From contig BCKZ01000019.1 in assembly GCA_001600815.1 (NCBI GenBank), forward strand, positions 373,981 through 437,980: DNA of 64,000 nucleotides. The letters are read 5' to 3'. The DNA is from Alloascoidea hylecoeti. Taxonomy: Eukaryota. The position numbers and the translations under genes are program-made. Positions within the stretch are counted from its first letter, which is position 1, and every line of letters starts with the position of its first letter. This document shows positions 1 through 60,014 of the stretch, in pieces. The notes beneath the pieces were generated by a model. It made no database searches and was not told the DNA's origin. It saw only the letters and a list, made by a program, of their open reading frames with translations.

Positions 1-334
1 TTTGAAAATGTTTGAAAATACGATATCAGAGATTCAGAGGTAGTTTAATTATAAGCATAAACTTATTTAAAAGTATCAATTTTGACAGAATAGGTGTAAA
101 CGTTTGATATCAAGCGTCAAATGTAACGTTACAGATAAGCTTAAATATTTTACTATGATATTAATTAATATTATAAATTATTAATAATAATATGATAGAA
201 TATATATTGATGAAAAAGGGTATAGTCATATTTTAAAATATATACTGTTTAGCTTATAATAGCTATGATATAAACTATATTCCATGCCATGATAAGAAGT
301 AACCAAAATAAATACAAAAACCTTTAATTAAAAT

Positions 335-1810
335 TTAACCTCTTGAACCTTTTAAATTTGAACCTTTTGAACCTCTTGAACTCCTTGGTGATTGTTCCTG
401 TTTAACCTGTTGAGCTCTCTGAGCTGCTTGAATTTGTTGAACTTGCTGAGCTTGCAATTTCTGAACTTGATGAACTTGATGAACTTGATGAGCTTGTTGT
501 AATTGAGAATTACGTTGTGATCTTGATCTTGATTGAGAAAATTGTTTTTGTTGTAAAACCATTGAATTTTGATTAACACAAATAATATCATTTGGATTTT
601 CAACACTAATCATACATGCTTCTCCAAGTATTCTTCCAACACCTGAATTATCTGAACTTTTTGGTGCAAAAGCTTTTGAAAACATTTCTCTCATTCTAAA
701 AAAATTTGTTCTAACAACAGTTGGTAATATAACTTTACTTTCTAAAGGTATTGGTTCAACTCTTTGAACACCAGAATAAACTTCTTCAACTTCTTCATCT
801 TCATCTATTGGACCATTTTCTTCTTTTTCAATTGCTAAATGTTGAGCATTTAATAATTCTGTATTTATTGCATGCTTTCTTCTTTGATAATTTGATAATA
901 AAACATCATAAGTTGCTGATCTACCAGGAACTGATCTTTTTGCAGACATTGAATGTGTTTTACAAGTTAATGATCTTGCACAATATTTACCATTTGGTAA
1001 TTTAACACCACATTGAATTTCAATATTAACTGGTGCATTTTTTTTAGAAATTTGTATTGGTTTTTTAGATTTTAATTTTTTTGTTGTTGATGATTCAAGT
1101 TTTTGCTTCCTTGTTTTTTTATTATTATTTTTTTTATATTTAGTTGGAGTTAGATTATCATTATCATTATCAATTTCATTATCAATTTCATTATCATTTT
1201 CATTATCATTTTCATTATCATTTTCATTATCAGATATTGAGAATGCTTTTCTTTTTTTATTTGGAGTTCCTGGTCTTGAAGAACCATAATCTGAATCACT
1301 TAAAAATGCTGATGACATTCTAACAGATTCACTTCTTTTATTATTATTTTTAATGATTTTTAATGATTTTATTTCTTCTTGTTTTAATTGTTGTTTTTTA
1401 ATACATTTTGTAATATGATTTGAAATAACAGATGATAATATTGGTCTTGAACAATAATTACAAATTCTATAATCTAAAGGTTCAGATAAAGGATTTTTTG
1501 ATTTAAATGATGACGTTAGTGTTAATGAAGAATTTGGTAAAGATGATAATGATTTAACATGAGGATCTGATTCTGGAGATGAATGATCTAAATCATCAAT
1601 ATATGAACCAAAATCTTTCCAAACGACTATTTTAGGTGATGATTTTTTCGTTTTATTGATCATGTTGTTTAAATGTGATGGAGTTTTATCAGTATCATCA
1701 TTATCATTATTTGTTTTAGATTTTGTAGTACCAAAGACTTGTTTTAAAATGGAATCGGATACATGAAGTTGTTGTCCTTTACTCTCGATGTTATTATCTA
1801 TGAAATTCAT
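335..1810 (-). CDS. SGF73: SAGA deubiquitination-module subunit Sgf73 / ataxin-7 family
   Basis: N-terminal zinc finger YRICNYCSRPILSSVISNHITKC; SCA7 domain QCGVKLPNGKYCARSLTCKTHSMSAKRSVPGRS; N/D/E-rich and Q-rich low-complexity tracts. Confidence 0.9.
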   Translation of the reverse strand: MNFIDNNIESKGQQLHVSDSILKQVFGTTKSKTNNDNDDTDKTPSHLNNMINKTKKSSPKIVVWKDFGSYIDDLDHSSPESDPHVKSLSSLPNSSLTLTSSFKSKNPLSEPLDYRICNYCSRPILSSVISNHITKCIKKQQLKQEEIKSLKIIKNNNKRSESVRMSSAFLSDSDYGSSRPGTPNKKRKAFSISDNENDNENDNENDNEIDNEIDNDNDNLTPTKYKKNNNKKTRKQKLESSTTKKLKSKKPIQISKKNAPVNIEIQCGVKLPNGKYCARSLTCKTHSMSAKRSVPGRSATYDVLLSNYQRRKHAINTELLNAQHLAIEKEENGPIDEDEEVEEVYSGVQRVEPIPLESKVILPTVVRTNFFRMREMFSKAFAPKSSDNSGVGRILGEACMISVENPNDIICVNQNSMVLQQKQFSQSRSRSQRNSQLQQAHQVHQVHQVQKLQAQQVQQIQAAQRAQQVKQEQSPRSSRGSKGSNLKGSRG

Positions 1811-2408
1811 TAATAAAACGAAATATATAACAAGAAATGATATATATTATTTTTGTATCCTTTTTTTGTGTTTGTGTCTTCGTAGCCACAGTAGTTCAGA
1901 AAAAGTAAAAAATTAATAGTCTACACATACCAAGACCAGATTCAAATTCAAATTCTTTGGTTTTAAACTTATGATTAATCATGTTTAATACAATGAATGA
2001 TGTATTAATCTCCAGTGATAAATAAATAAATAAATAAATAACCCTTTTTAAATAAATAAAAATATTAAATTTTGTTTTTTATTTCCATTAATTATTTCTG
2101 CAATTTTGGTTTTTTTCTCCAATTAATTTTATTTCCATGTGGGTGGACGGGTGTCCGTCTTCTCGAGCATATTTGGAGCGGCCGGCGGGTGCGCATTTGG
2201 CATCCGTGGAGGCAGGCCAATTGGTGTGGCATTTGGCCGGCGCTTTGTGATACATGACATTTTAGTTAAATGATCATAGAGATATCATGAGATATGTAAA
2301 CTTTCTGAATATATTTGATTCCGTTTGCCACTTTTGTTTGCCACCTTTTCTTTTCCTCTCAATCTTACAATTATCTGATTTCAAATTTCAACAATATAGA
2401 ATATTAAT

Positions 2409-3058
<650 letters not shown>

Positions 3059-3534
3059 TCGTCTTATATCATAAGCTTATTACATTTGAAAATCCTTTTT
3101 TTTTTTTTAACTTGGCTTGTGTGTTTATGTTTATCTTTAATTTAGTGAATTTATTTACTTTTATATTTATCAATTATTGCTATGATACCTTTAAATTGTT
3201 TTAATAAATCAAAATATATGTGATCATCATTATCATCCTATAGGATATCGTATCTATACATGATCTTTAGTGTCTATCGGATCGGATAAGCATACAAATT
3301 TGCCGAAGTATACCATATTAAAGGAAATCTAAAAGCTTAAGAATTGAAAAAATCCTTATAATTGCATCATCATTTGAACATTAATGTATTAAGGTTGAAA
3401 TCATGACAAATCGTGAACTATTATTAATAACTTTTATTTTGTAAGTACATGATTAACAAATCATATTATTAAACTGATCATGATCATTATAATTGCTTTT
3501 GATGATTATATAATTTATAGGGACCTCGTTCTAA

Positions 3535-4754
3535 CTACTTTTTTTTTCCAATTTTCCTCGCAACTCCTCTTGCTGGATCCCATTCATAAAGATCATATTC
3601 CTTCTTTTCTTTCACTCTTTCTAACCATATTTCACACTCTGAAAATTCATAAACTGTTATACCATCATACAGTACATCTCCTATTAATATAAACCATTGA
3701 ATAAATGAAAATAAGGTAAGAGCTATCAGTTAAATAACAAAATGTTAGTTTATTGATTGTTTAAATATTGCAACTTGAAAATGCATACCTCTTTTAACTC
3801 TATGAATTTTATACTGATAATAACTCCAGATTAGAACAGCACCCAACCCTGATAAATAAATAATTCCTTTCCGTCTTAGTTTATAAGATTTAGAATCCTT
3901 GATTGAACATTGAAGGGATAGAAATATCCAAGTTATTGTTAAGAAAGTATATGAAGTGAGCATGGTGTTTCGATCAGATGGATCATCAGAAGGAGTGATA
4001 CACACTGAACAATAAAAAATTGTTAATTATATATGAAATATGACTGTAAATGACCATAACTTACCCCATCCAGCATAGGCTATTGTTCTTAAAATACCAG
4101 TAAAAAGAAGATATTTTGAAAGATTTGAATTTCGAGATCTTGCGATTAAGTACCAAGTAAGAACCATAAGAAATTTAGGACCTGTTTAAACCCAATTTCA
4201 ATTACAATTAAAATTGATTGGAGATATTATTATTATTCATGGTTGAACATAATTTAAAAAATCAAATATCTAATACTTACCCATGGTAATAGCAATTGTC
4301 ATTTTGAAAAAGCTTCGTTCTGGATACTTTGCAGATATAATATCAGATAGTTCGATAATACTATAAATAGTTATTATTACATTAATTAAGAATAAATATT
4401 AATTGATACTTACACACCATATAAGGAATATAATTCGCGTCCTCGATGGATTAATGCAATAACCAACACAATGAAAAAAGAGGCTTAATATATGATATAT
4501 CAATGACAAGCATAGCAAAACAATTAGTTTTCGAAATTAGATAGTTTTTTATTTCTATCAAAAACAAATTTGAGGATATATACAAATTATTGTAAATGTA
4601 TGAAAAATCGATACATCTTTTGCATCTATCTGTATCATATATCAAAGTTGGTTAATAGTTATATGATTAACAGAAGAGCAATCAGCAATGATATATAATA
4701 TTGTAATGAATACAAACATACAGCAACTCGATTTTTCGATTCAAATCTCAACAT
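3535..4754 (-). CDS. Stand-alone PGAP2/Frag1 (Cwh43 N-terminal domain-like) membrane protein, 7 exons, 249 aa
   Basis: Exons spliced by hand: 4754-4722, 4629-4584, 4483-4414, 4360-4281, 4181-4065, 4004-3789, 3722-3535 (750 nt, open frame, all introns GT-AG). The product has KYPERSFF..IAITMGPKF, GILRTIAYAGWVCITPSDD, YQYKIHRVKRALTLFSFIQW..GDVLYD, collinear with Cwh43 N-domain motifs (RYPERS..GPRF, GW.Y.TSTDD, QHKVH..GAY..YA.FEW). Confidence 0.85.
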
Positions 4755-5230
4755 GATGGTGAGGAATTTGTGTTTTTTTGGGGGGATTGATGGCTATGTT
4801 ATAAATTATTATGTAATATCGGGAGGATGAATTATTTCGCACATATGTAGTATGCGTAATTAACCACTCTGTAGATAGGCAATTGGTAGCTGTAAGACCT
4901 AATTTTAATAATTTTAATCTCATGATCAACATACGATATTTGTAGATATTACCATGACTAGATGAAAAAAGATTATATTTAGGATGATAAGGTTATATGA
5001 AGGCTATGTATTACGTAAAGGGCTAGGTCCAAATCATGTGTGGCGATGGATCATAATTTATTAACGACAATGACACTTTTGATTTGTTTTTGAGACAACA
5101 TTTAAACCATTTAAATAGAGATCCATATTCCCATTCTTTTTTTTTCCTTCTTCTTAATTGCCTTTTGAAATTTATTTTACAACCGAATTATATCTAAACT
5201 TCAAATATTTTACATAGAGTTGAATGAAAT

Positions 5231-8200
5231 ATGGTGTTTTTTGACGTTGATGCACTTCGATTATTAGAGTTAATCATATCTGGAGTTCAAAGATTAAATG
5301 ATAAAATTGAAAATACAAATGATGAAAATATTAGAGAATTTTCACAATCTGTATTTGTTAAAAATATTTATAATCTTTATAAATTAATTAAATATAAAGA
5401 TGATTTAAAATCTCCAAATTTAAATTCCTCAAATTTAAGAATGGCTTATAATTTATTAAAACCAATTGAATTTAGAATTTCTGAATCTGATGAAATATTA
5501 AGTGAATATGTTGATGATTTTGAAATTAATGATAATAATATTATTAGTAACGATGGTTCTTTATCTCCTGGTAGATCTCCTGGTAGATCTCATGGTAGAA
5601 GGTTAGGTCATAAACGATCAAGGAGTTTATTATCAAGAATGAGAAATAAATTACATTGGAATTCAGATTCAAAACGTCTTGCAAAATTAGTACAAGAAAG
5701 TGAAAAAATGAGTCAAGTATTTGTTGAATTTATGGAACAAAATAAAAAACAATTACAATTAACTAAACTTCAACAACCAAAAGAAGAAGAATCAACAAAT
5801 TTAATTCAAAATTCAAAAAAACAAGATTATGATGATTGTAAAGTTGGATTATTATTACCATTTGAAAGAAATTCTAAATTTACTGGTAGAGAAGAAGTTT
5901 TAAATCAACTTGATGATATATTAACATCTCATAATCCATTACAAACATTTAAAAGAAAATCAATTATATTACAAGGTATGGGAGGTATTGGAAAATCTCA
6001 AATATGTCTTCAATATGCTTATAATAATGAAAAACTTTACGATTCAATACTTTGGATTGATGCAACAAACAATCAAACAACAGATAGATGTTTAAAAGAT
6101 ATTTTTGATGATTTAATATCATATTATACATCATCATCAAAATCATTTAGAAAAATAAGTAAATTATTTGGTATGCCAGAATTACTTGATTGTAATGGTA
6201 ATATTCAAACAGAAAATAATCCAAATAATGAAGAAATGATATCAACATTAAAATTATTAGCATTATCATCAAATCAAAATAAAAAAGATAATAAAATTTT
6301 CATTAATCAAAATCAACAAATTCATAAAGCAATTAAAAATTGGTTATCAAATCCAAAAAATATGAATTGGTTATTAATTATTGATAATATGGATAATCCT
6401 GATTTTCAATTAAATAATTTAAATTTCTTAATACCAAATGTTGATTGGGGTCATATAATAACAACAACAAAATTATCATCATCATTATTTTCAATAAGTT
6501 CAAGTTCATTATCAATTAATAATAGTTCATTTAAAGTTCACGAAACAATTGAAATTAAAGATTTTGGTGAAGAAAATAGTTTTAATTTATTATTAAAAAC
6601 TTCTGGTAAAATTTTAGATGAATTAACAAATGAAGAATTAAAATGTTGTAAAGCAATTTGTTTAGAATTAAATAATCATCCATTATCAATATCAATTGCT
6701 GGATCATATATTTTTGAAACTTGTTGCTTATTTGATGATTATTTAAATCATTTAAGAAATGATGTTGATATTTTTAAACCTGAACGTGATGAAACTTTTG
6801 AAGTTGTTTTTCAATTATCATTAAATTGTTTAAATGATTTTGAAAAAAAAATTTTAAATATTTGTGGTTTTTTAGCAAATGAAAATATACCGAAAATTTT
6901 ATTAAAAGAAATAATTAATGTTTATAACAATGATCATAATAATAATGAAGATGATAATGATAATGATAATGAAATTGAAAATTTAAAAACTTTTAATATG
7001 GCAATTAATAATCTTGATAGATATTCAATGATTACAAGATTACAAGATACAGGATCAATTAGAATTCATCCACTTTTACATAATTGGTTTAATATTCAAA
7101 TGAATAAAGATTTAAAAAAACCAATTTCAAAAATGATTTTAATTGCAATTTATCAATTAACTTGTTATAAAAATAATGAAAGTTTAATTTATGATCGAGA
7201 TTTTTGTTTTAAAATTTTATTACATATTCAAAAAATTATCGAAATGTTAAATACAATATTTTGGAATAGTAATGATAAAGAAATTTTAGATTATTCATGG
7301 AAATTAGGTAATAATATGAATTTTTTTAAACATTATCAAGAATCTGAATCATTATTTACTTATTCAATGATAAGATATGAAAATTTATATCTTAATAATA
7401 ATTTAGATAGATTAAATGTTTGTTATAATTGTGGAATTTCAAATTTAAATATTGATAAACCAATTGAATCAATTGAAATTTTAAAAAAATGTTTAAATAA
7501 TAGATTTAAAATTAAAGATTCATTATTGGAACCAACAGAATTACAAATTAAATATCAAATTGCAAAAGCTTATGAACAATCAAAAGATTATGAAAATTCA
7601 AAAAAATATTTAATTGATTGTATTGAAATAAGTAAAAATGAAATTCAAAATCAAAAATTAGAATTAAAAATATCAAATGAATCAATAAATTCAACATTTA
7701 TGTTAGCAATAAATTATAGTCGTTTAGGAGATTATGAAACTTCAGCAATTATATTATTAAATGGTTTAAAACTTTGTAAAAAAAAATATCCAGGAAATCC
7801 ATCAAATAAATTTACACCAAAATTTTATGATGCTTTAGGTACAATTTTTTTTAAATTAGGAAAATATATGAAATCAGAAAAATATTTAAGAAAAAGTTTA
7901 ACATTATATAAATTAATTTTAAATGATGATGATCATCCAAAATTATTAGGTATTTTGGTTAGTTTAGGTGATGTTTATTTACATGGTGATGAAACAAAAT
8001 TAGCGTTACAAATTTATGAAGCATGTTTAGAAGAATATGATGAAGTTTGGGGTTTTACAAGTTCTGATAGTTTAGATGTTGCCAGAAGAATTTCAGAATG
8101 TTATTTAATTCTTGGTAATGATGAAAATGCAAAAAAAATTCTTGAAAATAGAGATACAAGTTTAAAACATGTTTTAACTGATGAAGGAATTTATACACCA

Positions 8201-9319
8201 ACAAATCTTATTAAAAGACACGATTCTCAAGTTAAATTACAAAGTGTTTATAGGAAACTTTTAAAAAAAGGATTAACAGATCAAAATTTAGATGACAATA
8301 AAACATCATCAATTGTACTTCATGATGGTAGAAGAGCATCTCATACACCATATCCAGGGAGATCAACATCTCCATTAGCAAAATTTAACACACCTAGTTC
8401 TGATCTTCATGAGAAATTACAAACGTTAGAAATTCAAGATTTACAACTTCAAATTGGTGAAAATAATGAAATATTAATGCCATCATTACCTGGTTTAGAT
8501 TCAGTAACAATGGATGAAATGTCACCATTATCACCTGAAGGACAACACATGTTTTTATCAGGTGTATTAAGTCCTGAAGGTAAAGATCATAATGAAAAGC
8601 CTCTTCCTTCATTACCTGTTGTGGGCGGATCAAATAATCTAGAAGATGATGATGTTTTCTTATTTTCTTTTCCATCTATTAGAAGAAATAAAAGTAATCA
8701 ATCGGAACAGAATGATTCTTTACCATATCCAGATAGAGGGACACATGAATCAGATACTCAAAATTCACATGTACCATATCCTAGTTTAAATCTAGAAGGT
8801 CTACAATTGAGTGATTTAGATAATGAATTTGGATTTCAAGAACAAGTGCAACAACCAGTTAAAAGTAGAGCAGGTTCAGCAGTCCCATATCCAACAACTC
8901 AGGGTTTAACATTTGGGGGATATGATTATCAACCACAAGATGAAGTTCAGAGTCCAAGTTCACCGTATCCAACAACTGACGGTCTGAAACTATCTACATT
9001 TAATTATTCCCAAGACGAAGAAGAATCGGATCAACATCAAAGTCCTAGTTCACCATACCCCACAACTCAAGGATTAAACCCGTTTAGATCTGAAGATTAT
9101 CAAACACAAGATGGCGATTCGGATAAAAATAAAAGCCCACCGTATCCAACAGACGATGATTCTCAACATGGGACAGAATCCCGTTCACCATATCCACAAA
9201 TGGACGCAGATGACAAAGTTGATAAAGAAAGACCGGCACTGCCATATTTCAACAGTGAAATGAACATTGAGGATATTTCAGCAGAACAGAAGGAAGCATT
9301 TAACGTAGATATATATTAG
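5231..9319 (+). CDS. NLR-like STAND protein: helical N-terminal domain + NB-ARC + TPR repeats + PYP-repeat acidic tail
   Basis: LPFERNSKFTGREEVLNQL; P-loop GMGGIGKS (5975-5998); ILWIDAT; Walker B WLLIIDNMD; GHIITTTK; HPLSISIAGSYI; IHPLLH; TPR-like units such as YDALGTIFFKLGKYMKSEKYLRKSL and DHPKLLGILVSLGDVYLHGDETKLALQIYEACL. Confidence 0.9.
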   Translation: MVFFDVDALRLLELIISGVQRLNDKIENTNDENIREFSQSVFVKNIYNLYKLIKYKDDLKSPNLNSSNLRMAYNLLKPIEFRISESDEILSEYVDDFEINDNNIISNDGSLSPGRSPGRSHGRRLGHKRSRSLLSRMRNKLHWNSDSKRLAKLVQESEKMSQVFVEFMEQNKKQLQLTKLQQPKEEESTNLIQNSKKQDYDDCKVGLLLPFERNSKFTGREEVLNQLDDILTSHNPLQTFKRKSIILQGMGGIGKSQICLQYAYNNEKLYDSILWIDATNNQTTDRCLKDIFDDLISYYTSSSKSFRKISKLFGMPELLDCNGNIQTENNPNNEEMISTLKLLALSSNQNKKDNKIFINQNQQIHKAIKNWLSNPKNMNWLLIIDNMDNPDFQLNNLNFLIPNVDWGHIITTTKLSSSLFSISSSSLSINNSSFKVHETIEIKDFGEENSFNLLLKTSGKILDELTNEELKCCKAICLELNNHPLSISIAGSYIFETCCLFDDYLNHLRNDVDIFKPERDETFEVVFQLSLNCLNDFEKKILNICGFLANENIPKILLKEIINVYNNDHNNNEDDNDNDNEIENLKTFNMAINNLDRYSMITRLQDTGSIRIHPLLHNWFNIQMNKDLKKPISKMILIAIYQLTCYKNNESLIYDRDFCFKILLHIQKIIEMLNTIFWNSNDKEILDYSWKLGNNMNFFKHYQESESLFTYSMIRYENLYLNNNLDRLNVCYNCGISNLNIDKPIESIEILKKCLNNRFKIKDSLLEPTELQIKYQIAKAYEQSKDYENSKKYLIDCIEISKNEIQNQKLELKISNESINSTFMLAINYSRLGDYETSAIILLNGLKLCKKKYPGNPSNKFTPKFYDALGTIFFKLGKYMKSEKYLRKSLTLYKLILNDDDHPKLLGILVSLGDVYLHGDETKLALQIYEACLEEYDEVWGFTSSDSLDVARRISECYLILGNDENAKKILENRDTSLKHVLTDEGIYTPTNLIKRHDSQVKLQSVYRKLLKKGLTDQNLDDNKTSSIVLHDGRRASHTPYPGRSTSPLAKFNTPSSDLHEKLQTLEIQDLQLQIGENNEILMPSLPGLDSVTMDEMSPLSPEGQHMFLSGVLSPEGKDHNEKPLPSLPVVGGSNNLEDDDVFLFSFPSIRRNKSNQSEQNDSLPYPDRGTHESDTQNSHVPYPSLNLEGLQLSDLDNEFGFQEQVQQPVKSRAGSAVPYPTTQGLTFGGYDYQPQDEVQSPSSPYPTTDGLKLSTFNYSQDEEESDQHQSPSSPYPTTQGLNPFRSEDYQTQDGDSDKNKSPPYPTDDDSQHGTESRSPYPQMDADDKVDKERPALPYFNSEMNIEDISAEQKEAFNVDIY

Positions 9320-9472
9320 GTGCATAGTTAAATAAATAGCAAATAAACGGCAGTCAATTAGCAATATCCTGCGCATAAATGTTATGCGTAGTTTCAGAAG
9401 ACGGCATAAAACATTAAAGTTGTTTTTTGACAGCTCCTCTTCTGAAAAAGATCCAAACCACCAAAACAAAAA

Positions 9473-10189
9473 ATGGAAGAAGAACAAATTATTTCCACCG
9501 ATTCTGGAAAAGAGACACTCATAACAAATACTGCCGGTCTCAATCGTTCTTTGGAAACCTCCTCGGATGTCCATCTGTCCTTGTCCCGTTCGTCCACTCC
9601 TTCCATATCTGGTGCTCCACGTCGTACTAATCCCCCGCAATCTGATCCCTTGAAAACCCCAACCGTCAGAGAATTGGAGGAAGAAGGTGCTCTTATTAGT
9701 GGTGAAGAAGTGGCAATTTCCGATTTAAGTCATGCCCAGCAGGATTATTTGAGTGATGAAGCAAAAGTCAAAAAACAACAAGAATATGGGGAAGAGGCAA
9801 CAGATCTCAAAACGAGTAGAAAATCAAATAAAATATCAATTAAAGATTTATTATCTTCTTCTTCTTCTTCAAATAACTCAAACAACCCAAAAATTAAATC
9901 TCCATTATTAACACCTGAAATTCCATTGAATACTTTGATATCTAGAGATGTTTCAATCCATTCACATGATGATACTCCACATACTCCATCAACTCCAAAA
10001 CGTCCTCCATTAAAACAGACAAGCTCAAGTTGTTCAACTGCAACGGTTCATGATTTACAACAAGAGGGTGCTTTATTGGATGATGCTTATATCAACCCGG
10101 ACCAAGCTGATGTTTATCAAAGAGCCTTGAAAATGGCTGAAGATGGTGTTGTTGTTAATGTTAATTTAGAGGATTCCGACAAAGAATAA
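9473..10189 (+). CDS. Hypothetical disordered protein with a duplicated TV(R/H)(E/D)LxxEGAL motif
   Basis: 238-aa ORF with an A-rich start context (AAAAAATGG); two related segments PTVRELEEEGALI and ATVHDLQQEGALL; no recognisable domain. Confidence 0.75.
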   Translation: MEEEQIISTDSGKETLITNTAGLNRSLETSSDVHLSLSRSSTPSISGAPRRTNPPQSDPLKTPTVRELEEEGALISGEEVAISDLSHAQQDYLSDEAKVKKQQEYGEEATDLKTSRKSNKISIKDLLSSSSSSNNSNNPKIKSPLLTPEIPLNTLISRDVSIHSHDDTPHTPSTPKRPPLKQTSSSCSTATVHDLQQEGALLDDAYINPDQADVYQRALKMAEDGVVVNVNLEDSDKE

Positions 10190-10409
10190 AATGCTTTACA
10201 ATTGTTATTAAAATCAGATATCTCATAATTATAAATGATATTCTTAAAAAAAATAGATAAATAGATAAATGAATAAATAGATAAATAAAATATACTCGTA
10301 AAATGCCTTTCAATGTTCTAATTCTAATTCTAGATCTATATTTTTTATTGTAAGCTACATATATCTCACAACAAATAATAGAATATAAATATTTGAGTAA
10401 ATGCTATAC

Positions 10410-12590
10410 TTAATCAAAGATAGTATCAGCATTTTCGAAAAATACATCTGGTCTTGTGCAAGTACCAAGAGATCTTTTAGCATGACTATTCAATAATGTT
10501 AATCCGTAAGTATAACTTGCATTAACCCATCCAAATCCTTCTGTTGCAACTCCTTTAAAATCTGCTCCTTGATTTCCATATTCTGCATCCACTCTATGAG
10601 GATCAACTTCTCTTGTAACATCATATTTCTCAACAACTATACCATTATAATCAACAAATGCTTTTGTTATAAGATATAACCAACGATAAATAAGACGTTG
10701 AGCATCATCTCCATAACCATATTTAATTAATCCATTCCATGCTAAAATTTGTTGAGGTGCCCAACCATATGGATAATCCCATTGTCTATTTGGACGATTC
10801 AATCCAATTTCTCCTCTTGATTTTTCTGTACCTGCAACCAACCCACCAAACATTTCAAATTTTGGTAATGCAATATCCATTAATTTAACTGCTTGTCTTG
10901 GTGTTGCAACTCCTGCCCACATTGTCCAAAAAGTAGTTGCTGATTCATAATCTGATTGAATTTTTAATTCTGTATCATAATCAAAAAACATTCCTTCTTT
11001 TTCATTCCAACAATATTTATTTATATTATCACGTCTCTTTTTAGCTCTTCTATCCCATATAGCTGATTTTTCAATAATTGTTGAATCATCATCATCCATT
11101 GATAATTTATCATTAAATTGAGTTCTTATTGTATGTGCAATATCAATTTCATATTTATATAATAATGAATTTAAATCAATTGTTGCTAATCTTGCACATT
11201 TTTTTTCTAATCTATAACTTGTATCATGACCTGATTCTCTAACTGCTCTATCATTTAAAAAATAATCATCTAATACTGGTTCTTTTATAATACCATCATT
11301 ATATCTTTGTTGAAAAGTATTTAAATCAATACCATGTTTATCAGCATATGGTTGTAATAAATGAATAAAATGACTTGATTCAGTTTCTGGTGGTATACCT
11401 ATACCATCAGGCCTATATCTTGATAATCCTGAAATTGGATCTAATCTTGGTTCAGAACACCAAACTGTTTTATATTCTTTAATTGCTGCTCTAATTGATT
11501 TTTTTAAAAAAATTTTAGAATTTATTTCATCATGTTTAATTTTTTCATAAACTCTTAAAGCCATATCAGTTAAAAATGGTGGTTGTGAACGACATAAATA
11601 ATAACTTCTATTTGCATTTAAAATTTTTCCATAATGATTAATTTCAAATATAAAATGTTCAACCATACCTTTTGCTAAATCAATTTGATTATCAACTAAT
11701 AAACCAAGAGAAATCATATAAGAATCCCATCCATAAAATTCATTAAATCTACCACCTGGTACAACATATGGTATAGAACGTAAAGTTGTTTCACCAGTTG
11801 TTGGATCATGACATTTCCTCATTGCTAAAGCTAATAATCCAGGTTTATCATTAACTGATTTAACCCATTCAGGTGTAATATTTTTTGGTAAATATTCAAC
11901 TTCTAATTTAATATCAAAATTATTCCTTGATGCATTTAAAAAATATTCATATTGTTCTTTTTCATCATATGGTATATAAATTCTTGGATTATTACTTTTA
12001 GCTTTTGAATCAGTTGCTATTTTAATAATATTATTCGCATCAATATTTCTAATCAAATTATTTAAAAATTGATTTGTTATTAATCTTGATAATCTTTTAA
12101 CTGGATTTTCATTTAATCGCTCTTCACTTAAAATCATTGAATTTCTACCAAGTTTTTTTGCCATTGTTAATTCTTGTAATAAATTTGATAGCATATATGT
12201 GCCTCTTATATCAATTTTATTAAAACCATTTGAATTTGCTGTACCTAATTTTAAAACTTTTGGTCCCGAATCTTCAATTGTAATTTGAAAATTCTTATCA
12301 GTATCTTCTGTATCTAATAAATCTTTCAATGTTTCATCAACATCTGATATTAAAAAAGTTCTAGCATATTCACTTGCTTCCAAATCTTGTGAAGCTCTTC
12401 GACGTAGAAAATCAAGTGAATTGACATTTGTAACTCGACGATCAATAATTGACATTGTACGTGCTCTAGCAAGTTTACTGCCTTTTTTGGTGGTAGCTGG
12501 ATCCGTTTCTGGCCCATAATAAATCTCGGATGATGCAAATGGATCAATAAAACTTGAAGAAGACCTTCTTCTATTAATATTCATCGACAT
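10410..12590 (-). CDS. NTH1: Neutral trehalase (GH37)
   Basis: Ca-binding [44 protein letters not shown]; RRxS PKA sites in the N-terminus. Confidence 0.97.
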
Positions 12591-12773
12591 TCTTATTCAA
12601 TTCAATTCCCGTAAAAATTATAAACCTACCCGTGTAAAAAATAATAAACCAATTCCTTTTTTTGTAATCAAAATAAAGTGGTGAAGATAAAAAACGGATG
12701 GATGATAATAATTACATCATTTATCGCATGACTCCGCGTATATCTCCGTCCGTATGTATATTTCAGTATTAAC

Positions 12774-12781
12774 CCGGGTAA
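12774..12781. promoter_or_regulatory. Reb1-type site in the NTH1/YRB1 divergent promoter
   Basis: Exact CCGGGTAA in the ~280-bp intergenic region. Confidence 0.55.
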
Positions 12782-12869
12782 CACTGTTTTCCTTTTTTGC
12801 ATTCCAAACACAAATCAAAAAAATCAATTCAGAAAAAAAAATTAGCAGTTGATAATTATTTTTTGAAAA

Positions 12870-13702
12870 ATGTCTGATTCTGATAACAAAACTCCAGTTG
12901 AAACTCCAAAAGATACTTCAAAAGAAGAACCTAAAAAGGAGGAAGCTAAAATAGATACTTCATCAAATGTATTTGCTTTATTTGGAGGAGGTGCACCAAA
13001 ACCTCAACCAGTTGCAGAGGTAAAGCCAGAAGAACAAAAAGAAGAAGAAAAAGCTGAAGAGGAAGAAGTTGACGTTCATTTTGAACCATTGGTTCATTTG
13101 GAAAAGGTTGATGTTAAGACAAATGAAGAAGATGAAGAAGTTTCTTTTAAAATGTATGTTAGTGTTTTTGTTGATGATCTGACCTTGATCTTTGTGGCGA
13201 TCATGGTGTTGTTCGTTTTTTTACCACCCGCATTTTATTGATTCAATGATTTATAAATACTAACAAATTAATTTTTTTCGATGATTATAGAAGAGCCAAA
13301 TTATTCCGTTATGATGCTGCTGCCAAAGAATGGAAAGAACGAGGAACTGGTGATGTTAAATTCTTAAAACACAAAACCACACACAAGGTCAGACTCGTTA
13401 TGCGCAGAGATAAAACTTTGAAAATTTGTGCCAATCATTATAGTATGTATTTATTATTATTCTTATTTTTTATTATTTATTATTCATTAACTAATAATTT
13501 TTATTTTTAAGTTTCTCCTGATTATGAATTGAAACCAAATGTGGGAAGTGACCGTTCTTGGGTTTATACTGTTACTGCTGATATTTCAGAAGGTGAACCA
13601 GAAGCACAAACTCTTGCTATTCGTTTCGGTAACAGTGATAATGCTAAGAAATTTAAGGAGAACTTTGAAGAAGCTCAAAAATCAAATAATAAAGCAAATT
13701 AA
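12870..13702 (+). CDS. YRB1: Ran-binding protein 1, 3 exons
   Basis: Exons 12870-13153, 13291-13442, 13512-13702; GTATGT donors, TACTAAC and AACTAAT branch sites. The spliced product has [43 protein letters not shown] and LAIRFGN. Confidence 0.95.
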
Positions 13703-16700
13703 ATTGCAAATTAAATTGCAAATCTTCAAATTAATTAACGAAAACGAAAATCAAAATTAAACATCAAAAATTGAAAATTGAAAATCCTCATATTTATCAG
13801 TATATATTAATAGCTATAAATATAGAATACAAATATGAAAACTGAAAGAAAAATGTTATCTTCTTGAATGTTATAATTATTTAAATTCTATATTTATCTC
13901 GTTATCCTTTGTTCTACGTGTCGTTAGTTTTTTGATTGAATAATATTAGAAACAAACCAAAACAGGAATTTCTTAATTGCAAACTCACCTACACCAACCA
14001 TTAAATAGTTATATAGTTTTTAATAAATTTTAAGTCTTAACAATTGCAATATTAATATTAATATTAATATTGTTACTAATAATTGCCTAAACCTAAGCCT
14101 TAAATCTAGTTTAACGTTTACCTTGGCCAACTCGCAATTATATTCATCTTTCAAACAAGTGGTTTAATGAAAGACCGAAAGCTAATATTGATCTATTAAC
14201 GGCTTTAATACATTTCTTTTTAGCTAAAAAGAAATCGGAGTAAAGATGCACATGTTGATTCTCGATCAATGATCATATACATTTGCCATATAGCCGTCAC
14301 GGATATATCATATGTTGTATTTATATTACTGTGTCGTAGCCTGAATACACTTATTTTAATCAATTAATTGTATAAACATTTTTGTTAATTTAATAATCTT
14401 TAAATTTTGGAGTGCATGTATTATAATGAGGAATATTAATAGTGTAATTATTAACTACTAACTACTAACTAGTGCTAGAGTTGCAATTACTGACTCGTTC
14501 AATTATAATATCGTATAGATAAAATTTATTTGACCCTATAATAGTCATAGCTTCGGCTAGATTCAACTAAATCTTTAAATTTGTAGTCTCAATTGCAATT
14601 AATTTGGTAATATTAAGCATTAGTATTAATATTTATCTTATCAACATACACTGTATAAATGGGCCTATCTCGCGGCTCTCTCGCCTTTATTTTACCGCCG
14701 GATTTAACTAAACCAGTATTGGTGAGGAGGAGTATTAATAATTAAACAAGATCTAACTCCATGATCATGATATATAAGCATAGCCATAGCCATGGGAAAT
14801 GTTAACAGATCTTTAACATCTTAAACGGTAATTATAATAATCATGTTCAATATCAATATAATTCAATGAATTGGTAACTTTTATACTTTTTACCCAGAAT
14901 TGAAAACAGAATGAATTGGTCGCATGCAACAAATGACATTGGTTCCATTCGCATAATCTTTTTATCGTCAAAAATGTTGTGTCTGTATCTTTTCTCTCTT
15001 TAAGTCAATATTGTTACAACTTCTTATTCATTTAACATATAATATGTATAAAATTAAAAAAAAATAATCCAAATAGATTTCAATTACAATAACTAATCAA
15101 CTAAATCACTCATCCCGTTTCAAGATTATTACAATATTTGTTTATATTTTCCTCCTGGATCGGAATGGAATAGTTCGAATTTGGGATTGAGAGTTTTCGT
15201 GGGGATTCGAAGATATATAATATAAAAAGAGGAGAGAAATAGCAAGATGTTAATTGGATACAATTTCCCCCTATATTGGCTCTCAATCTTTTATTTTCAG
15301 TTCAAAGTTGGAGTTTCATCTTCCTTTTTACTCAGTTTCTAATGCTGCTTATCTCAAGTACAATAATTTCCTCTTTCCATGACATCACCGACTGCGGGAT
15401 TTTCTTTGAGTATCTTTTCCTTGCTTCTATCAGCTTTACTTTACTGTTTCATTTTCATTTTGTTTTTTCAAGAGCTCTGGCTCTCAAGGGTAACAATTGA
15501 ACCGTTTAAGTTGGTCTCTCGTTGTAAACTCTAAATTTAAAATAGGTCTTGCATCTTACGCATAGTATGCATATTGTGAGTTTTAGGCCATTCTCACCAA
15601 TATATGTTTCTATTTGACACTATTAAAAAAACTTCATTAATTTCTAAAATGATTCAAATTTTTTTTAATTATCAAAAGAATGAACAAACGAAGAGGAAAA
15701 AATTGATGGAATATTAAGTGTTCGTCTTCTAAATACAGTTGTTGTTCATAGATAAACTGATCATGATGCAGTTTTCATCAATTTCATTTTAGAAGGGTGA
15801 AACTAATCAATATAGAATTATCTTTGATTTAAATTTTTTACACAGATTTTATTGAAATGATTTAAAATGTTGTAAATTTTTTTTAATTAATTAGAATATA
15901 TATTATAAACTAATAAGTGATAACATTAATACAATTATTTATAAAAAAAACTGTAATGATAAGAGAATAAGATTAACTATACGACTGGAAAAAAGAGATA
16001 AAAGCTTAAAGACAATATTGCAAGACACGTCCACGAAATTTTTTTTTAGAGAGGAAATAGTTTATACTTGATTATGATTTTATCATGATAAATGATGACT
16101 TTTTTTTATTTCAATTAATATAAAATGACAAAATTGCATTTTTAACGATTATTTATTTTCTGTGCTAATGATAAATATATAATTTTCAAAAGAAGAGGAC
16201 AACTAAAAAAGAGATTTTTTTTTTTAACACATTTTTATATAACAATTGGAATTTAAAATTAAAATTGGAATTAAAATTAGAATTGGAATTGGGGAAAGGA
16301 AAAAAAATGAAAATGAAATTTATATTATGAAATGAAATGAAATGCGGAGATATATAATGAGGTCAAAAAGTATAAATGCAATAAATACATTAATTATAAA
16401 AAAGTGAAATCTTTTCTTTTTCTTTTTTGAAAAAGATCAAAAACAAGGACAAGGACGAGATACGAAAGTTTAAGAAACAAGGTGAGGATATGAGGAGAGA
16501 GAGAACAAAATCATAAAAGTCAGTTAAGTATAGTTTAATAATAGAACGCAGAAAAGATGAAAGATAAAACATAATCCAAAGCCTTTTTTATATTTTAGCA
16601 GAGATATTCATCATGATAAAAAAAAAAAAAACTTTATAATAAAAATGACAAACTTTTTTTGTCTTATTTCTTAAATGTTTGATGGCAGATGAGATGAAAT

Positions 16701-56607: not shown

Positions 56608-59600
56608 ATGGTTGAAGCAACGACTGCAAAAGGTATCCAATTCGAGAATGTAAGTTCCTTGCAATTGATGATCTTTGTCATTCAAGATCTGATTCAATTC
56701 TAACTAACTTTCGCTTCGCCTTTTCTATTCTTATTATTAATTTAAATTTAATATAGACTTCAAGACGTGATGCTTTAATTGAAATCGAAAAACGTTATCA
56801 AAAAGTTTGGGCTGATGAAAAAATCTTTGAGCTTGATGCACCAAGAGATTCAACCCTCTCACCAAATGAACTTCGTGAAAAATATCCAAAGCACTTTGGC
56901 ACAATGGCTTATCCATACATGAATGGTGTCTTACATGCTGGTCATTGCTTTACTTTATCAAAAGTTGAATTCATCACTGGGTTTGAAAGAATGAGAGGTA
57001 AAAATGCCTTATTCCCTCTTGGGTTCCATTGTACTGGTATGCCAATCAAAGCTTGTGCTGATAAATTGGTCCGTGAAATTGAACAGTTTGGGGAGAATTT
57101 TGAGAATGTTCCAAAAGAAGATGAAACTGAAGTTGCAGAACCTGCTAAACCAAAGGCAAAAAGAGAAGATATTTCTAAATTTACTGCTAAAAAAAGTAAA
57201 GCTGTTGCCAAAGCAGGAAGATCAAAATATCAACATGAAATTATGTTACAGTTAGGTATTCCCCGTGAAGAAGTTAAAAGATTTGCTGAAGCTGAATATT
57301 GGCTAAGATATTTCCCTGGTCTTTGTGAAAAAGATTGTACAAGTTTTGGTGCTCGTATTGATTGGCGTCGTAGTTTTATTACTACCGATGTTAATCCATA
57401 TTATAATCGTTTTGTTGAATGGCAAATGAATAGACTTCGTGAATTGGGTAAAATCAAATTCGGTGAAAGATATACAATTTATTCAGCAAAAGATGGTCAA
57501 CCATGTATGGATCATGATCGTCAATCTGGTGAAGCTGTTGTTCCCCAAGAATATGTAAACATTAAAATTGAGGTTTTGAAATTTACAGAAAGTGCTGAAA
57601 ATGTTCTATCAAATGCTAAATTTACTCAGGAAGGTAAAAAATTCTACTTAGTCGCTTCTACTTTACGTCCTGAAACCATGTATGGACAAGTATGTTGTTT
57701 TGTTAGTCCCAAGATCACATATGGTATATTTGATGCTGGTAATGATAGTTACTACATTTGTACAGAGAGGGCCTTTAAGAATATGTCTTTCCAAAAATTA
57801 ACACCAAAACGTGGTTACTATAAGCCTGTTGTTGAAATCAAAGGTAGTGAGTTAATTGGTTCTGAAATTCATCCTCCTCTTTCAGTTTATCCAAAAGTTT
57901 ATGTTCTTCCCATGGAAACGGTTCTCGCTTCGAAAGGTACTGGTGTTGTCACTTGTGTTCCAAGTGATTCACCAGATGATTACATCACTATGAAAGAATT
58001 AGCGCATAAACCCGAATATTACAATATTAAGAAAGAATGGACGGATTTTGAAATTGTTCCGGTTCTTAAAACACCAACCTATGGTGATGTCACTGCTAAA
58101 ACTTTAGTTGAAAAATTTAAGATTAGATCTCCCCGTGATAAGGATTTGTTAGCACAAGCCAAGGAGATCGCTTATAAGGAAGGCTTTTATCAAGGTGTTG
58201 TAGTTATTGGACCATATAAGGGGTCTAAAGTTGAAGATGCCAAGGCCAAAGTTAAGAAAGATCTAGTTGATAGTGGCGCAGCATTCATTTATAATGAACC
58301 TGAATCATTAGTTATCTCACGTTCTGGTGATGAATGTGTTGTCTCTCTTGAAGATCAATGGTATTTAGATTACGGTGAGGAAACATGGAGAGCACAAGTT
58401 GAAGAATGTCTTTCTGACTTAAATACCTTCTCCCCAGAAACACGTAATGGTTTCGAAGGTGTTTTAGGATGGTTGAAAAATTGGGCTTTATCTAGATCTT
58501 ATGGTCTTGGAACTAAAATCCCATGGGATCCTAAGTATTTGGTTGAAAGTTTATCTGATTCAACGATTTATATGGCTTATTATACTGTTTGCCATTTTTT
58601 GCATAAGGATTATTATGGCGCAGAGACTGGTTCTTTAGGTATAAAACCCGAAGAAATGACTGATGAAGTTTGGGATTACATTTTTACAAGAAGAGATGAT
58701 ATTACAAATAGTCCAATTTCAAAGGAAAAACTTGACATTATGAGAAATGAATTTGAATATTTTTATCCATTAGACGTTAGAGTTTCCGGTAAAGATTTGA
58801 TTCCAAATCATTTAACATTCTTTATGTATATTCATACAGCAATTTTCCCAAAACAATATTGGCCAAAGGGTATTAGAGCAAATGGTCATTTACTTTTAAA
58901 CAACGAAAAGATGTCAAAAAGTACTGGCAATTTCTATACTTTAAAACAGATTGTTGAAAAGTTTGGTGCTGATGCTGCTAGAATTGCACTCGCCGATGCT
59001 GGTGATTCATTTGAGGATGCCAATTTCGATGAAAGTAATGCGAATGCTGCAATTTTGCGTTTAACTACTTTAAAAACATGGAGCGAAGAAATAATCCAAA
59101 ACATTGACTCTTACAGAAGTGGTCCTTTAGAAAGTTTCTTAGATCGTTCTTTTGATAATGAAATGAATCAAATCATTGAGAAAGCTTATAAAGAATATGA
59201 TGAAACAAATTTTAAAGCTGCTCTAAAATATGGCTTATTTGATTTCCAAACTTCAAGAGATTATTACAGAGATTCAACTTCTGATTCTCTTGGAATGCAT
59301 AAAGATTTAATTTTAAAATATATTAAAACCCAAGCCTTGTTAATTGCACCAGTTGCACCACATTTTGCTGAATATATTTATAGAGATGTTTTAAAAAATA
59401 AGGAAAGCATTCATAATGCTAAATTTCCTAGAGCTGAAACTCCTGTTGATAAATCACTTGAGGCAGCTCTTGAATATGTTAGAGATCTACAACGTTCAAT
59501 TCGTGAAGCTGAAGGATTATCTGAAAAGAAGCAAAAGAAAGGACATGGTATTCAACTTGATACTACAAAACCGGTCGAATTAACAATCTTCATTTCTCCC

Positions 59601-60014
59601 TCTTTTCCAGTTTGGCAAGATGAATATATTGAACTTGTTAGAGGATCATTTGATAAGTTATCATTAACATTTGATAAAGATTTACCAAAAAAAGTATCAA
59701 AATTAGGTGATATGAGACGTGGTATGCCATTCGTTAACTTTTTAAAACAAAGACTTCAAAAAGAATCTCCAGAAGTGGTTTTTAATAGAAAACTTATTTT
59801 CAATGAAATTGATACAATCAAACAAGTATTACCATTACTTAAGCGAAGTCCTCCAAAATCAACAGTAGAAAAATTAAGTGTTTATGCATTGAAAAGTGAT
59901 AATCAGGTTGCTGTTGATATTATTAGTGGTGAAGAAATTGAAGTGACCGCCCCTGCTAAAACGATTGAGGGTGCTGTTCCAGGAAATCCAGCCGTTTTAT
60001 TGAAGAATATATAA
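56608..60014 (+). CDS. CDC60: Cytosolic leucyl-tRNA synthetase, 2 exons
   Basis: Exon 1 56608-56649; intron 56650-56756 (GTAAGT..AACTAAC..TAG). The junction gives ENTSRRDALIEIEKRYQKVW; YPYMNGVLHAGH (HIGH) and KMSKS motifs present. Confidence 0.97.

Follow-up and report, generated by a model that had tools for sequence, protein, structure and literature searches.

Genes for NOD-like receptors (NLRs) number in the tens to hundreds in most filamentous fungi. In Dyrka 2014 (PMC4986451), NLR matches are missing from 38 of 38 Saccharomycotina genomes and NLRs are proposed to go with filamentous growth. PMC5658179 (2017) and PMC9119436 (2022) also name Saccharomycotina as lacking NLRs, and in these three papers the absence from yeasts serves as an argument tying NLR immunity to filamentous, multicellular growth. 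Here, we describe an open reading frame (ORF) at positions 5231–9319 of a 64-kb stretch of contig BCKZ01000019.1 (positions 373,981 to 437,980 of the forward strand; 'the window' denotes this whole stretch of 64,000 nucleotides) that encodes a protein of NLR architecture in a host placed within Saccharomycotina. An earlier note on this DNA, made from its letters, had taken the absence or rarity of NLRs in this subphylum as the established view, and the same three papers bear it out. We found no published NLR for Saccharomycotina, Lipomyces, Alloascoidea or Sporopachydermia, although exceptions may appear in supplements (the species tables of Dyrka 2014, for instance) or in a census of approximately 36,000 NLRs cited in PMC9815663.

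The closest described proteins are Pezizomycotina NLRs in which a HeLo or HeLo-like head precedes NB-ARC and tetratricopeptide repeats (TPRs), for example Rhizina undulata KAL7271330.1 (P0132) and Ascobolus immersus RPA74722.1 (P0149). Like the window protein, they possess a helical head, an LPFxRNxxFxGRE lead, NB-ARC, DUF7779 and TPR_10/TPR_12 in the same order, and they are its best named sequence matches (E of 1e-46 to 1e-31, 26–35% identity). The window protein differs from them in lacking a Pfam HeLo match, in the Asn-rich insertions of its nucleotide-binding domain (NBD), in a sensor-I Lys, in having fewer TPRs, in its tail of 372 residues that contains nine PY[PF] motifs, and in its Saccharomycotina host. 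HeLo, HELL, SesA and Goodbye heads are described as fused to fungal NLRs, and linked to MLKL and to plant coiled-coil (CC) domains, in PMC12881547 (2025). According to the same paper, in the Podospora anserina pairs NWD2/HET-S and PNT1/HELLP an NLR (PNT1 being NB-ARC-TPR) controls a helical-bundle executor that targets membranes; that executor is not part of the NLR and is switched on by way of an amyloid motif, whereas the predicted bundle of the window protein is fused to the NLR itself. Plant CC-NLRs (ZAR1, Sr35 and NRC2/NRC4) and the helper CC-R NLR NRG1 have a bundle of four helices at the N-terminus joined to NB-ARC, an arrangement predicted for the window protein too. Plant NLRs match the nucleotide-binding oligomerization domain (NOD) of the window protein in fold (E of 6e-10 to 7e-7) and in profile (ZAR1, 1.6e-8), and its head model superposes on Rx-CC, NRC2 CC and NRG1.1 CC-R at Z of 9.5–11.1, a head likeness within the range of generic bundles; they differ in carrying a leucine-rich-repeat sensor where the window protein has TPRs, and identity is 12–16%. 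Apaf-1, CED-4 and Dark provide the best structural matches to the NOD, in closed forms and with the same order of NBD, helical domain 1 and winged-helix domain, and differ in their CARD head and WD40 sensor, with 13–14% identity to the window protein. In the prokaryotic signal-transduction ATPases with numerous domains (STAND) AfsR (Streptomyces) and PH0952 (Pyrococcus), NB-ARC is followed by TPRs, and the two are among the best profile matches in the PDB (7.7e-13 and 8.5e-7). AfsR differs in being a transcription activator with a SARP DNA-binding head, and the window NOD falls in a fungal clade apart from the clade that holds a Ktedonobacteria protein.

The ORF is a genuine, intact and chromosomally resident gene for a STAND protein of tripartite NLR architecture with an extra disordered tail. 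We read its product as a fresh representative of the fungal helical-bundle/NB-ARC/TPR NLRs in an unexpected lineage; what is unusual in it is the host lineage, a head too divergent to classify and the added motif-rich tail. The features of the gene are given below; A4 denotes an alignment of the window NOD with 15 short relatives and A5 a 74-row NOD alignment.

5231..9319, + strand: whole ORF, 1362 amino acids (aa) plus stop, with helical-bundle head, NB-ARC, TPR and disordered tail (ORF scan)
5231..5785, + strand: N-terminal domain, aa 1–185, predicted four-helix bundle (AlphaFold2 model from a 2-sequence alignment)
5855..5893, + strand: lead motif LPFERNSKFTGRE, aa 209–221, ahead of the P-loop in fungal NB-ARC-TPR proteins (alignment with the LPFxRNxxFxGRE consensus)
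5858..7180, + strand: NB-ARC nucleotide-binding oligomerization module (NBD, helical domain, winged helix), aa ~210–650 (AlphaFold2 model, Foldseek, family profile against the PDB)
5975..5998, + strand: Walker A/P-loop GMGGIGKS, aa 249–256 (G, G, G and K columns invariant or nearly so in A4 and A5)
6203..6325, + strand: Asn-rich NBD insertion, aa ~325–365 (alignment columns 501–550; low confidence at model residues 131–160)
6368..6394, + strand: Walker B WLLIIDNMD, aa 380–388 (W, L, D and N nearly invariant in the alignments)
6455..6472, + strand: sensor-I strand IITTTK, aa 409–414 (K414 at a nearly invariant Arg column)
6677..6691, + strand: GLPL-type motif HPLSI, aa 483–487 (aligned to the LPLAL consensus)
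6845..7111, + strand: winged-helix region (Pfam DUF7779), aa 539–627 (21.8 bits, under the cut-off; 18 of 19 scanned relatives have DUF7779)
7064-7081, + strand: MHD-type motif IHPLLH, aa 612–617 (aligned to the IHPLV consensus)
7328..8200, + strand: TPR region, aa ~700–990 (Pfam TPR families)
8201..9316, + strand: C-terminal tail, aa 991–1362, rich in S, P, Q, D and E, disordered (composition, motif scan)

The reading frame runs from ATG to stop on the + strand as a single frame of 1362 codons, and the longest open run in the remaining five frames across 5231..9319 is 93 aa. The stretch is 75% A+T, which makes a random codon a stop with probability 0.096, and from base composition the chance of 1362 codons staying open is approximately 1e-60. 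At 9.6% stop probability per codon, selection is required to keep a frame of this length open; the 372 open codons of the tail likewise show that it is coding. The tripartite layout of fungal NLRs is present, with the head at residues 1–185, the NOD at approximately 210–650 and the TPRs at approximately 700–990. The earlier note had claimed an uninterrupted 1362-aa ORF, five ordered motifs and an NB-ARC plus TPR architecture. Each of these claims is upheld: the frame is the sole long one at the locus, the motifs lie in order (FTGRE 217–221, GMGGIGKS 249–256, WLLIIDNMD 380–388, HPLSI 483–487 and IHPLLH 612–617), and the architecture is recovered by Pfam for the TPRs and by phmmer, a family profile against the PDB and Foldseek. 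Comparison with PF00931 and the TPR profiles, which the note had proposed as a check, gave a divided outcome, with the TPR families above their cut-offs and NB-ARC at threshold and partial. The locus was also the only one matched when P0001, P0131 and P0232 were searched against the window with tblastn.

As Pfam alone is borderline for NB-ARC, the assignment is secured by phmmer, by the family profile and by Foldseek of the model. An exhaustive phmmer search with residues 1–1000 against 1.84 billion representatives returned 9937 proteins at E ≤ 1e-3, of which 2126 reach E ≤ 1e-10 and 24 reach E ≤ 1e-30; the best are NB-ARC/DUF7779/TPR proteins. The A4 profile retrieved AfsR (7.7e-13), ZAR1 (1.6e-8), PH0952 (8.5e-7), Apaf-1 (1e-6), Roq1 and NRC1 from the PDB, its other matches being kinesin light-chain TPRs at the end of the profile; the family profile is required for significance, since a single-sequence phmmer search of the NOD against the PDB gave a best E of 0.24 (Sr35 and CNL9). 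The AlphaFold2 model of residues 201–700, calculated from the 74-row alignment, has a mean predicted local distance difference test (pLDDT) of 86.2 and a predicted TM-score of 0.85, with the Asn/Ser-rich insertions in the NBD at low confidence. Foldseek aligned it to 133 PDB chains at E ≤ 1e-3, and nearly all of the best 50 are Apaf-1, CED-4, Dark and plant NLRs: Apaf-1 leads (3shf, 4.2e-11; 1z6t, 2.7e-10), and CED-4, NRC2, NRC1 NB-ARC, Sr35, ZAR1, Dark and Roq1 also appear. The best TM-scores belong to closed or resting forms, namely ADP-bound Apaf-1 (TMq of 0.57–0.58) and resting NRC2 (0.53). Within the module, LLIIDN (aa 381–386) follows the Walker B pattern of four hydrophobic residues and D, followed by D or N. 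The winged-helix region located after NB-ARC in fungal NLRs, DUF7779, falls short of its cut-off of 27 with 21.8 bits on the whole protein. The NBD insertion is common to the window protein, P0232 and, in part, P0131, and the Pezizales relatives lack it in the alignment. On this sequence and model evidence the NB-ARC assignment is sound.

The TPR region is clear at the family level. On the whole protein, Pfam gives TPR_12 at 2.2e-15 (57 bits, cut-off 30.1), TPR_8 at 2.8e-11 (43.1 bits), TPR_2 at 31.2 bits and TPR_10 at 28.5 bits, and on the TPR piece alone TPR_12 reaches 8.5e-19 and TPR_8 8.1e-16, with TPR_2 and TPR_10 in addition. DNA tandem-repeat scans of the ORF revealed no high-identity TPR repeat arrays, and short codon-repeat runs were all that they returned. 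Runs of (AAT/GAT)n encoding Asn/Asp stretches occur at 6910-6982 in the NLR gene and at 1154-1238 in a neighbouring SGF73-like gene, and Logan contigs from all three DNA runs end at such runs.

In the model of the head, helices at residues 8–28, 32–59, 66–91 and 133–181 have pLDDT values of 85–95, a basic, Ser-rich loop at 97–131 is disordered, and the mean pLDDT is 70. The sole sequence relative of the head is P0232, a protein of 423 aa with 35% identity over residues 9–415, and a word-based search with the head profile at longer lengths returned P0232 alone. The order of three helices, a long loop and a long last helix running into the LPFxRN lead is also the one in which MAFFT aligns the head with HeLo heads from the relatives in Rhizina, Ascobolus and Melanomma, but homology has no statistical support. 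Among the matches listed by VIA-align, the CC domain of potato Rx stands at Z of 10.7–11.1 (rmsd 2.5–2.8, 107 of 107–108 residues), followed by NRC2 CC at 9.8, NRG1.1 CC-R at 9.5, AtMLKL3 at 9.4, MLKL at 8.3–9.3 and MLA13 at 7.4, and helical bundles reach such Z through their common arrangement alone. The Rx-CC, NRC2 CC, NRG1.1 CC-R and MLKL four-helix-bundle matches span nearly whole domains at rmsd of 2.5–3.4. HET-S HeLo was not among the matches listed in either VIA-align run of the head (best 50 each). Language-model features in Atlas place the head near the PigL_N, SesA, HeLo and MLKL_N clusters at 0.79–0.84, which is lead level. The head is thus predicted to be a four-helix bundle where relatives have HeLo, and it may act as an executioner of HeLo type.

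The tail departs from the rest of the protein in composition, with a GC content of 0.35 versus 0.20 for the NOD and TPR parts, and the aligned relatives lack its 372 residues. It contains nine [STLV]-P-Y-[PF] motifs, at aa 1040, 1165, 1182, 1219, 1245, 1275, 1304, 1320 and 1338 (window 8348-9250), three of which take the form SPYPTT(Q/D)GL. The motifs matched no known short linear motif, and the tail gave no Pfam family, Atlas look-alike or DNA tandem repeat.

The nearest proteins, P0131 and P0232 followed by the NLRs of Pezizales and Orbilia, are 27–37% identical to the window protein, and none exceeds 37%. The window's own protein was absent from both word-based protein searches and from the HMMER representatives, and a word-based search with residues 200–960 yielded nine distant matches. 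Nineteen relatives were scanned with Pfam, 18 from the best phmmer matches and P0002 from a word-based search: 15 have NB-ARC at E ≤ 0.01 (ten at or above the cut-off), 18 have DUF7779, six have an N-terminal HeLo domain, and all except P0232 and P0149 have TPR families. In a FastTree tree of the NOD, built on 69 of the 74 A5 rows after the five with less than 50% cover (P0232 included) had been dropped, the window protein pairs with P0131 (support 0.92); proteins of Kalaharituber and Sphaerosporella join the pair next, with weak support (0.77). These fall within a clade of 29 tips (0.96), 14 of them named and each of those from Pezizales or Orbilia, and the Ktedonobacteria protein lies in a separate large clade. 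P0232 itself has a lost or degenerate P-loop and ends just after the sensor-I strand, and the fraction of Phe, Tyr, Met, Ile, Asn and Lys (FYMINK) is 0.371 in both P0232 and the window protein. Because of the lost P-loop, the truncation and the same amino-acid bias, P0232 has probably decayed from a paralogue or orthologue in a genome just as AT-rich, possibly this same one.

The gene lies among the following neighbours.

335-1810, - strand: SCA7/SGF73-like gene
2522-3058, + strand: Arf GTPase
9473-10189, + strand: Ser-rich acidic ORF of 238 aa (orf238), directly 3' of the NLR gene (no Pfam family)
10410-12590, - strand: neutral trehalase, NTH1
12870-13702, + strand: RanBP1/YRB1-like gene with two introns (exon pieces 12870-13160, ~13290-13450 and 13511-13702)
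56904-60014: class-I tRNA synthetase

Further genes in the window encode Tcp11, a Zn2Cys6 factor, an SDR protein, a ZIP transporter, UbiA and a dual-specificity phosphatase, and no tRNA genes were found within the 64 kb. The neutral trehalase gene stands head to head with the RanBP1/YRB1-like gene; S. cerevisiae NTH1 (YDR001C) and YRB1 (YDR002W) are divergent neighbours too, which would make this a very old conserved synteny. orf238, whose GC content is 0.385, contains an E-E-G-A-L-(I/L) motif twice. Neither an amyloid motif nor a partner gene was seen next to the NLR gene, whose downstream neighbour orf238 has no family, and the window contains no long direct or inverted repeats hinting at a mobile element, the (AAT/GAT)n coding runs shared with SGF73 being the only repeat pairs. 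GC at third codon positions (GC3) is 0.077 in the NLR ORF, 0.069 in SGF73 and 0.081 in NTH1. A composition step runs along the window: genes of the left 13 kb have GC3 of 0.07–0.08 and those at 16000–64000 have 0.14–0.29, and GC reaches 0.19 at 6001–8000. The earlier note had placed the gene among yeast housekeeping genes, with the AT bias of NTH1 and SGF73, and had called it a long resident. The neighbours (SGF73-like, Arf, neutral trehalase and class-I tRNA synthetase) are as it stated and the bias is indeed shared. Long residence is also supported, because the composition matches that of the flanking genes and the nearest proteins are put at only 27–35% identity.

The host was placed by means of the trehalase, whose best named matches are from Saccharomycotina (62–71% identity). 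A quick maximum-likelihood search on 30 named or key rows chosen from 120 listed paired the window protein with P0012 (97 in the SH-like approximate likelihood-ratio test). The pair is sister to Ascoidea, Pachysolen, Cyberlindnera/Wickerhamomyces (Phaffomycetales) and Saccharomycetaceae (98), with the Lipomyces clade and Pezizomycotina plus Neolecta both lying elsewhere in the tree. Because of this position the host is taken to lie inside Saccharomycotina and outside the crown orders, a part of the tree in which orders such as Alloascoideales or Sporopachydermiales branch. The 'budding-yeast-like' host of the earlier note is therefore right as to the subphylum, with the caveat, from this single-gene tree, that it branches outside the crown orders.

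Four sequencing runs contain the stretch. Three carry the label organism A and are possibly its source, and the fourth, X4, is a wood-decay metagenome in which 0.81 of the sampled words are present. The wood-decay source of X4 hints at the organism's habitat. Contigs spanning the gene and its flanks come from three independent data sets, X4 (3010-6558 and 8259-13000), X1 (6989-12105) and X2 (4490-6921 and 6989-10794). The assembly is not chimeric, a possibility that the earlier note had raised, because these contigs bridge gene and flanks and join the gene to ARF, orf238 and NTH1. The listed X4 contigs cover 3572 of the 4089 ORF nucleotides (87%; 6559-6568, 6922-6988 and 7819-8258 are uncovered), and over this length X4 has six single-nucleotide polymorphisms (SNPs), no indel and no frame-breaking change. 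Three are synonymous (Q170, F399 and A1217) and three non-synonymous (N1053S, T1278A and N1358T); all of the latter are in the tail, so that the head, NOD and TPR region, where covered, show two synonymous changes and none non-synonymous. Upstream of the ORF, the 2.2-kb spacer differs by 11 substitutions and a 2-base insertion, NTH1 differs by three substitutions, and 28 substitutions and one indel are listed over window 1–13000; both differences in orf238 are synonymous. X4 is a different, conspecific strain. Hypervariability is known from some fungal NLR sensors; the X4 differences, which are small in number, are compatible with constraint on the folded domains and show nothing of such variability. 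Metatranscriptome contigs X7 match window 1–13000 as mismatched pieces of 24–40 nt, which are uninformative on expression either way, and the listed runs containing the stretch include no RNA data set.

An immune or cell-death role for the product, which the earlier note had proposed as possibly the core of an undescribed yeast defence or cell-death pathway, would follow from family resemblance, and a mechanism may be outlined on the same footing. In the resting state the protein would be a closed, ADP-bound monomer that the TPR region keeps shut. A ligand or a modified guarded partner would release the TPRs, and the module would open as the nucleotide is exchanged at the P-loop (K255) and at the MHD-type histidine (H613). 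The NB-ARC domains could then form a ring, as in apoptosomes and resistosomes, and the ring would bring the N-terminal bundles together. In the least certain step, the clustered bundles might attack a membrane or recruit an executor, so that the cell or hyphal compartment stops growing or dies; the HeLo/HELL heads of fungal NLRs and the CC heads of plant NLRs serve as the model for it. The tail may serve as a regulatory or docking region.

As a whole, the explanation that we favour, at slightly better than even chances, is a fungal tripartite NLR that is an old Saccharomycotina resident and acts as a bundle-clustering switch. Several results count against it. At the head, the model was built from two sequences only, no Pfam family was found at E ≤ 1 on the whole protein or at E ≤ 0.01 on the head alone, and Foldseek of the model against the PDB gave no match at E ≤ 1e-3. 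Comparison with the HeLo heads of 11 relatives by hhalign was not significant with the linker included (Prob 18%) or without it (colinear 10–174 versus 19–257, P of 0.033, Prob 1.5%). The VIA-align Z of 9–11 lies within the generic-bundle range, with IncA (12.5–13.4), designed bundles and Cbl 4H interspersed among the matches. In the NOD, Pfam NB-ARC (PF00931) scores 23.5 bits, exactly its cut-off of 23.5, over residues 228–297 and profile positions 9–76 of 248. ATPase competence is uncertain because K414 replaces the sensor-I (RNBS-B type) Arg that at least 90% of A4 rows have, a conservative change. The TPR region is shorter than in relatives, the X4 SNP counts are tiny, and the host placement comes from one gene and a quick tree.

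The same architecture could instead belong to a non-immune STAND/TPR scaffold or regulator, active in development, stress or self/non-self recognition in cell fusion, with the bundle as an adaptor. This is a serious minority view, to which we give about one chance in four. It would accommodate a head not assignable to HeLo, HELL or MLKL with significance, AfsR (a transcription regulator) as the solved protein nearest in sequence to the family profile, a single NLR gene in the window, TPRs lacking hypervariable high-identity repeats, a sensor region with no non-synonymous differences between two strains, and a long motif-rich tail suggestive of regulated docking. It sits less well with the bona fide HeLo heads that six of the 19 scanned relatives carry in the same position, with the colinearity of the head and those HeLo heads in the alignment, and with the recurrence of cell-death four-helix-bundle and CC domains among the fold matches of the head. 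A second alternative, that the protein is a decaying relic whose frame is open and which no longer works as a nucleotide switch, draws on the sensor-I change from Arg to Lys, the Asn/Ser-rich low-complexity NBD insertions, the reduced TPR region, and the decay within the small clade that P0232 shows. We consider it very improbable: selection is needed for such a frame, both Walker motifs and the MHD-type His are undamaged, the NOD model is confident, and the X4 strain keeps the frame and the sequence of the covered folded domains.

As to origin, long residence in the lineage is the simplest account of the gene, whether it was kept since the ancestor shared with Pezizomycotina or taken up in the distant past, and recent transfer is excluded because the composition is native and identity is low. 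Its grouping with the earliest-branching Pezizomycotina classes in the NOD tree fits vertical descent, and fits ancient transfer too. Horizontal transfer from an early-diverging Pezizomycotina fungus of Pezizales/Orbiliales type, in place of vertical descent, would explain the composition of the 29-tip clade and its nearest named members, Kalaharituber and Sphaerosporella, together with the reported lack of NLRs in the yeasts surveyed and a decaying-wood habitat signal common to many filamentous ascomycetes. We nevertheless regard it as improbable, since no match exceeds 37% identity, codon composition is wholly that of local host genes, the flanks are housekeeping genes free of mobile-element repeats, and the first partner in the tree is the AT-rich P0131, with a weak link to the Pezizales pair; vertical descent predicts the same grouping, and any transfer would necessarily be ancient.

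An NLR that is intact and compositionally native in a Saccharomycotina genome is a counter-example or a boundary case to the rule of NLR absence: a hyphal host would refine the rule and a yeast-growing host would break it. An apparently single intact copy with at most one decayed relative would also make knock-out and the hunt for a ligand unusually clean. We hold only tentatively, somewhat below one chance in three, the stronger proposal that this is a working NLR passed down from the ancestor that budding yeasts share with filamentous ascomycetes, absent through loss from the yeasts so far surveyed and here still gating a bundle-driven death or arrest response. If true, the statement that yeasts have no NLRs would be overturned, the fused bundle/NB-ARC/TPR death switch would predate the split between Saccharomycotina and Pezizomycotina, a single-gene fungal NLR would become available beside yeast genetics, and the PY[PF]-repeat tail would represent a new regulatory or decoy module on an NLR.

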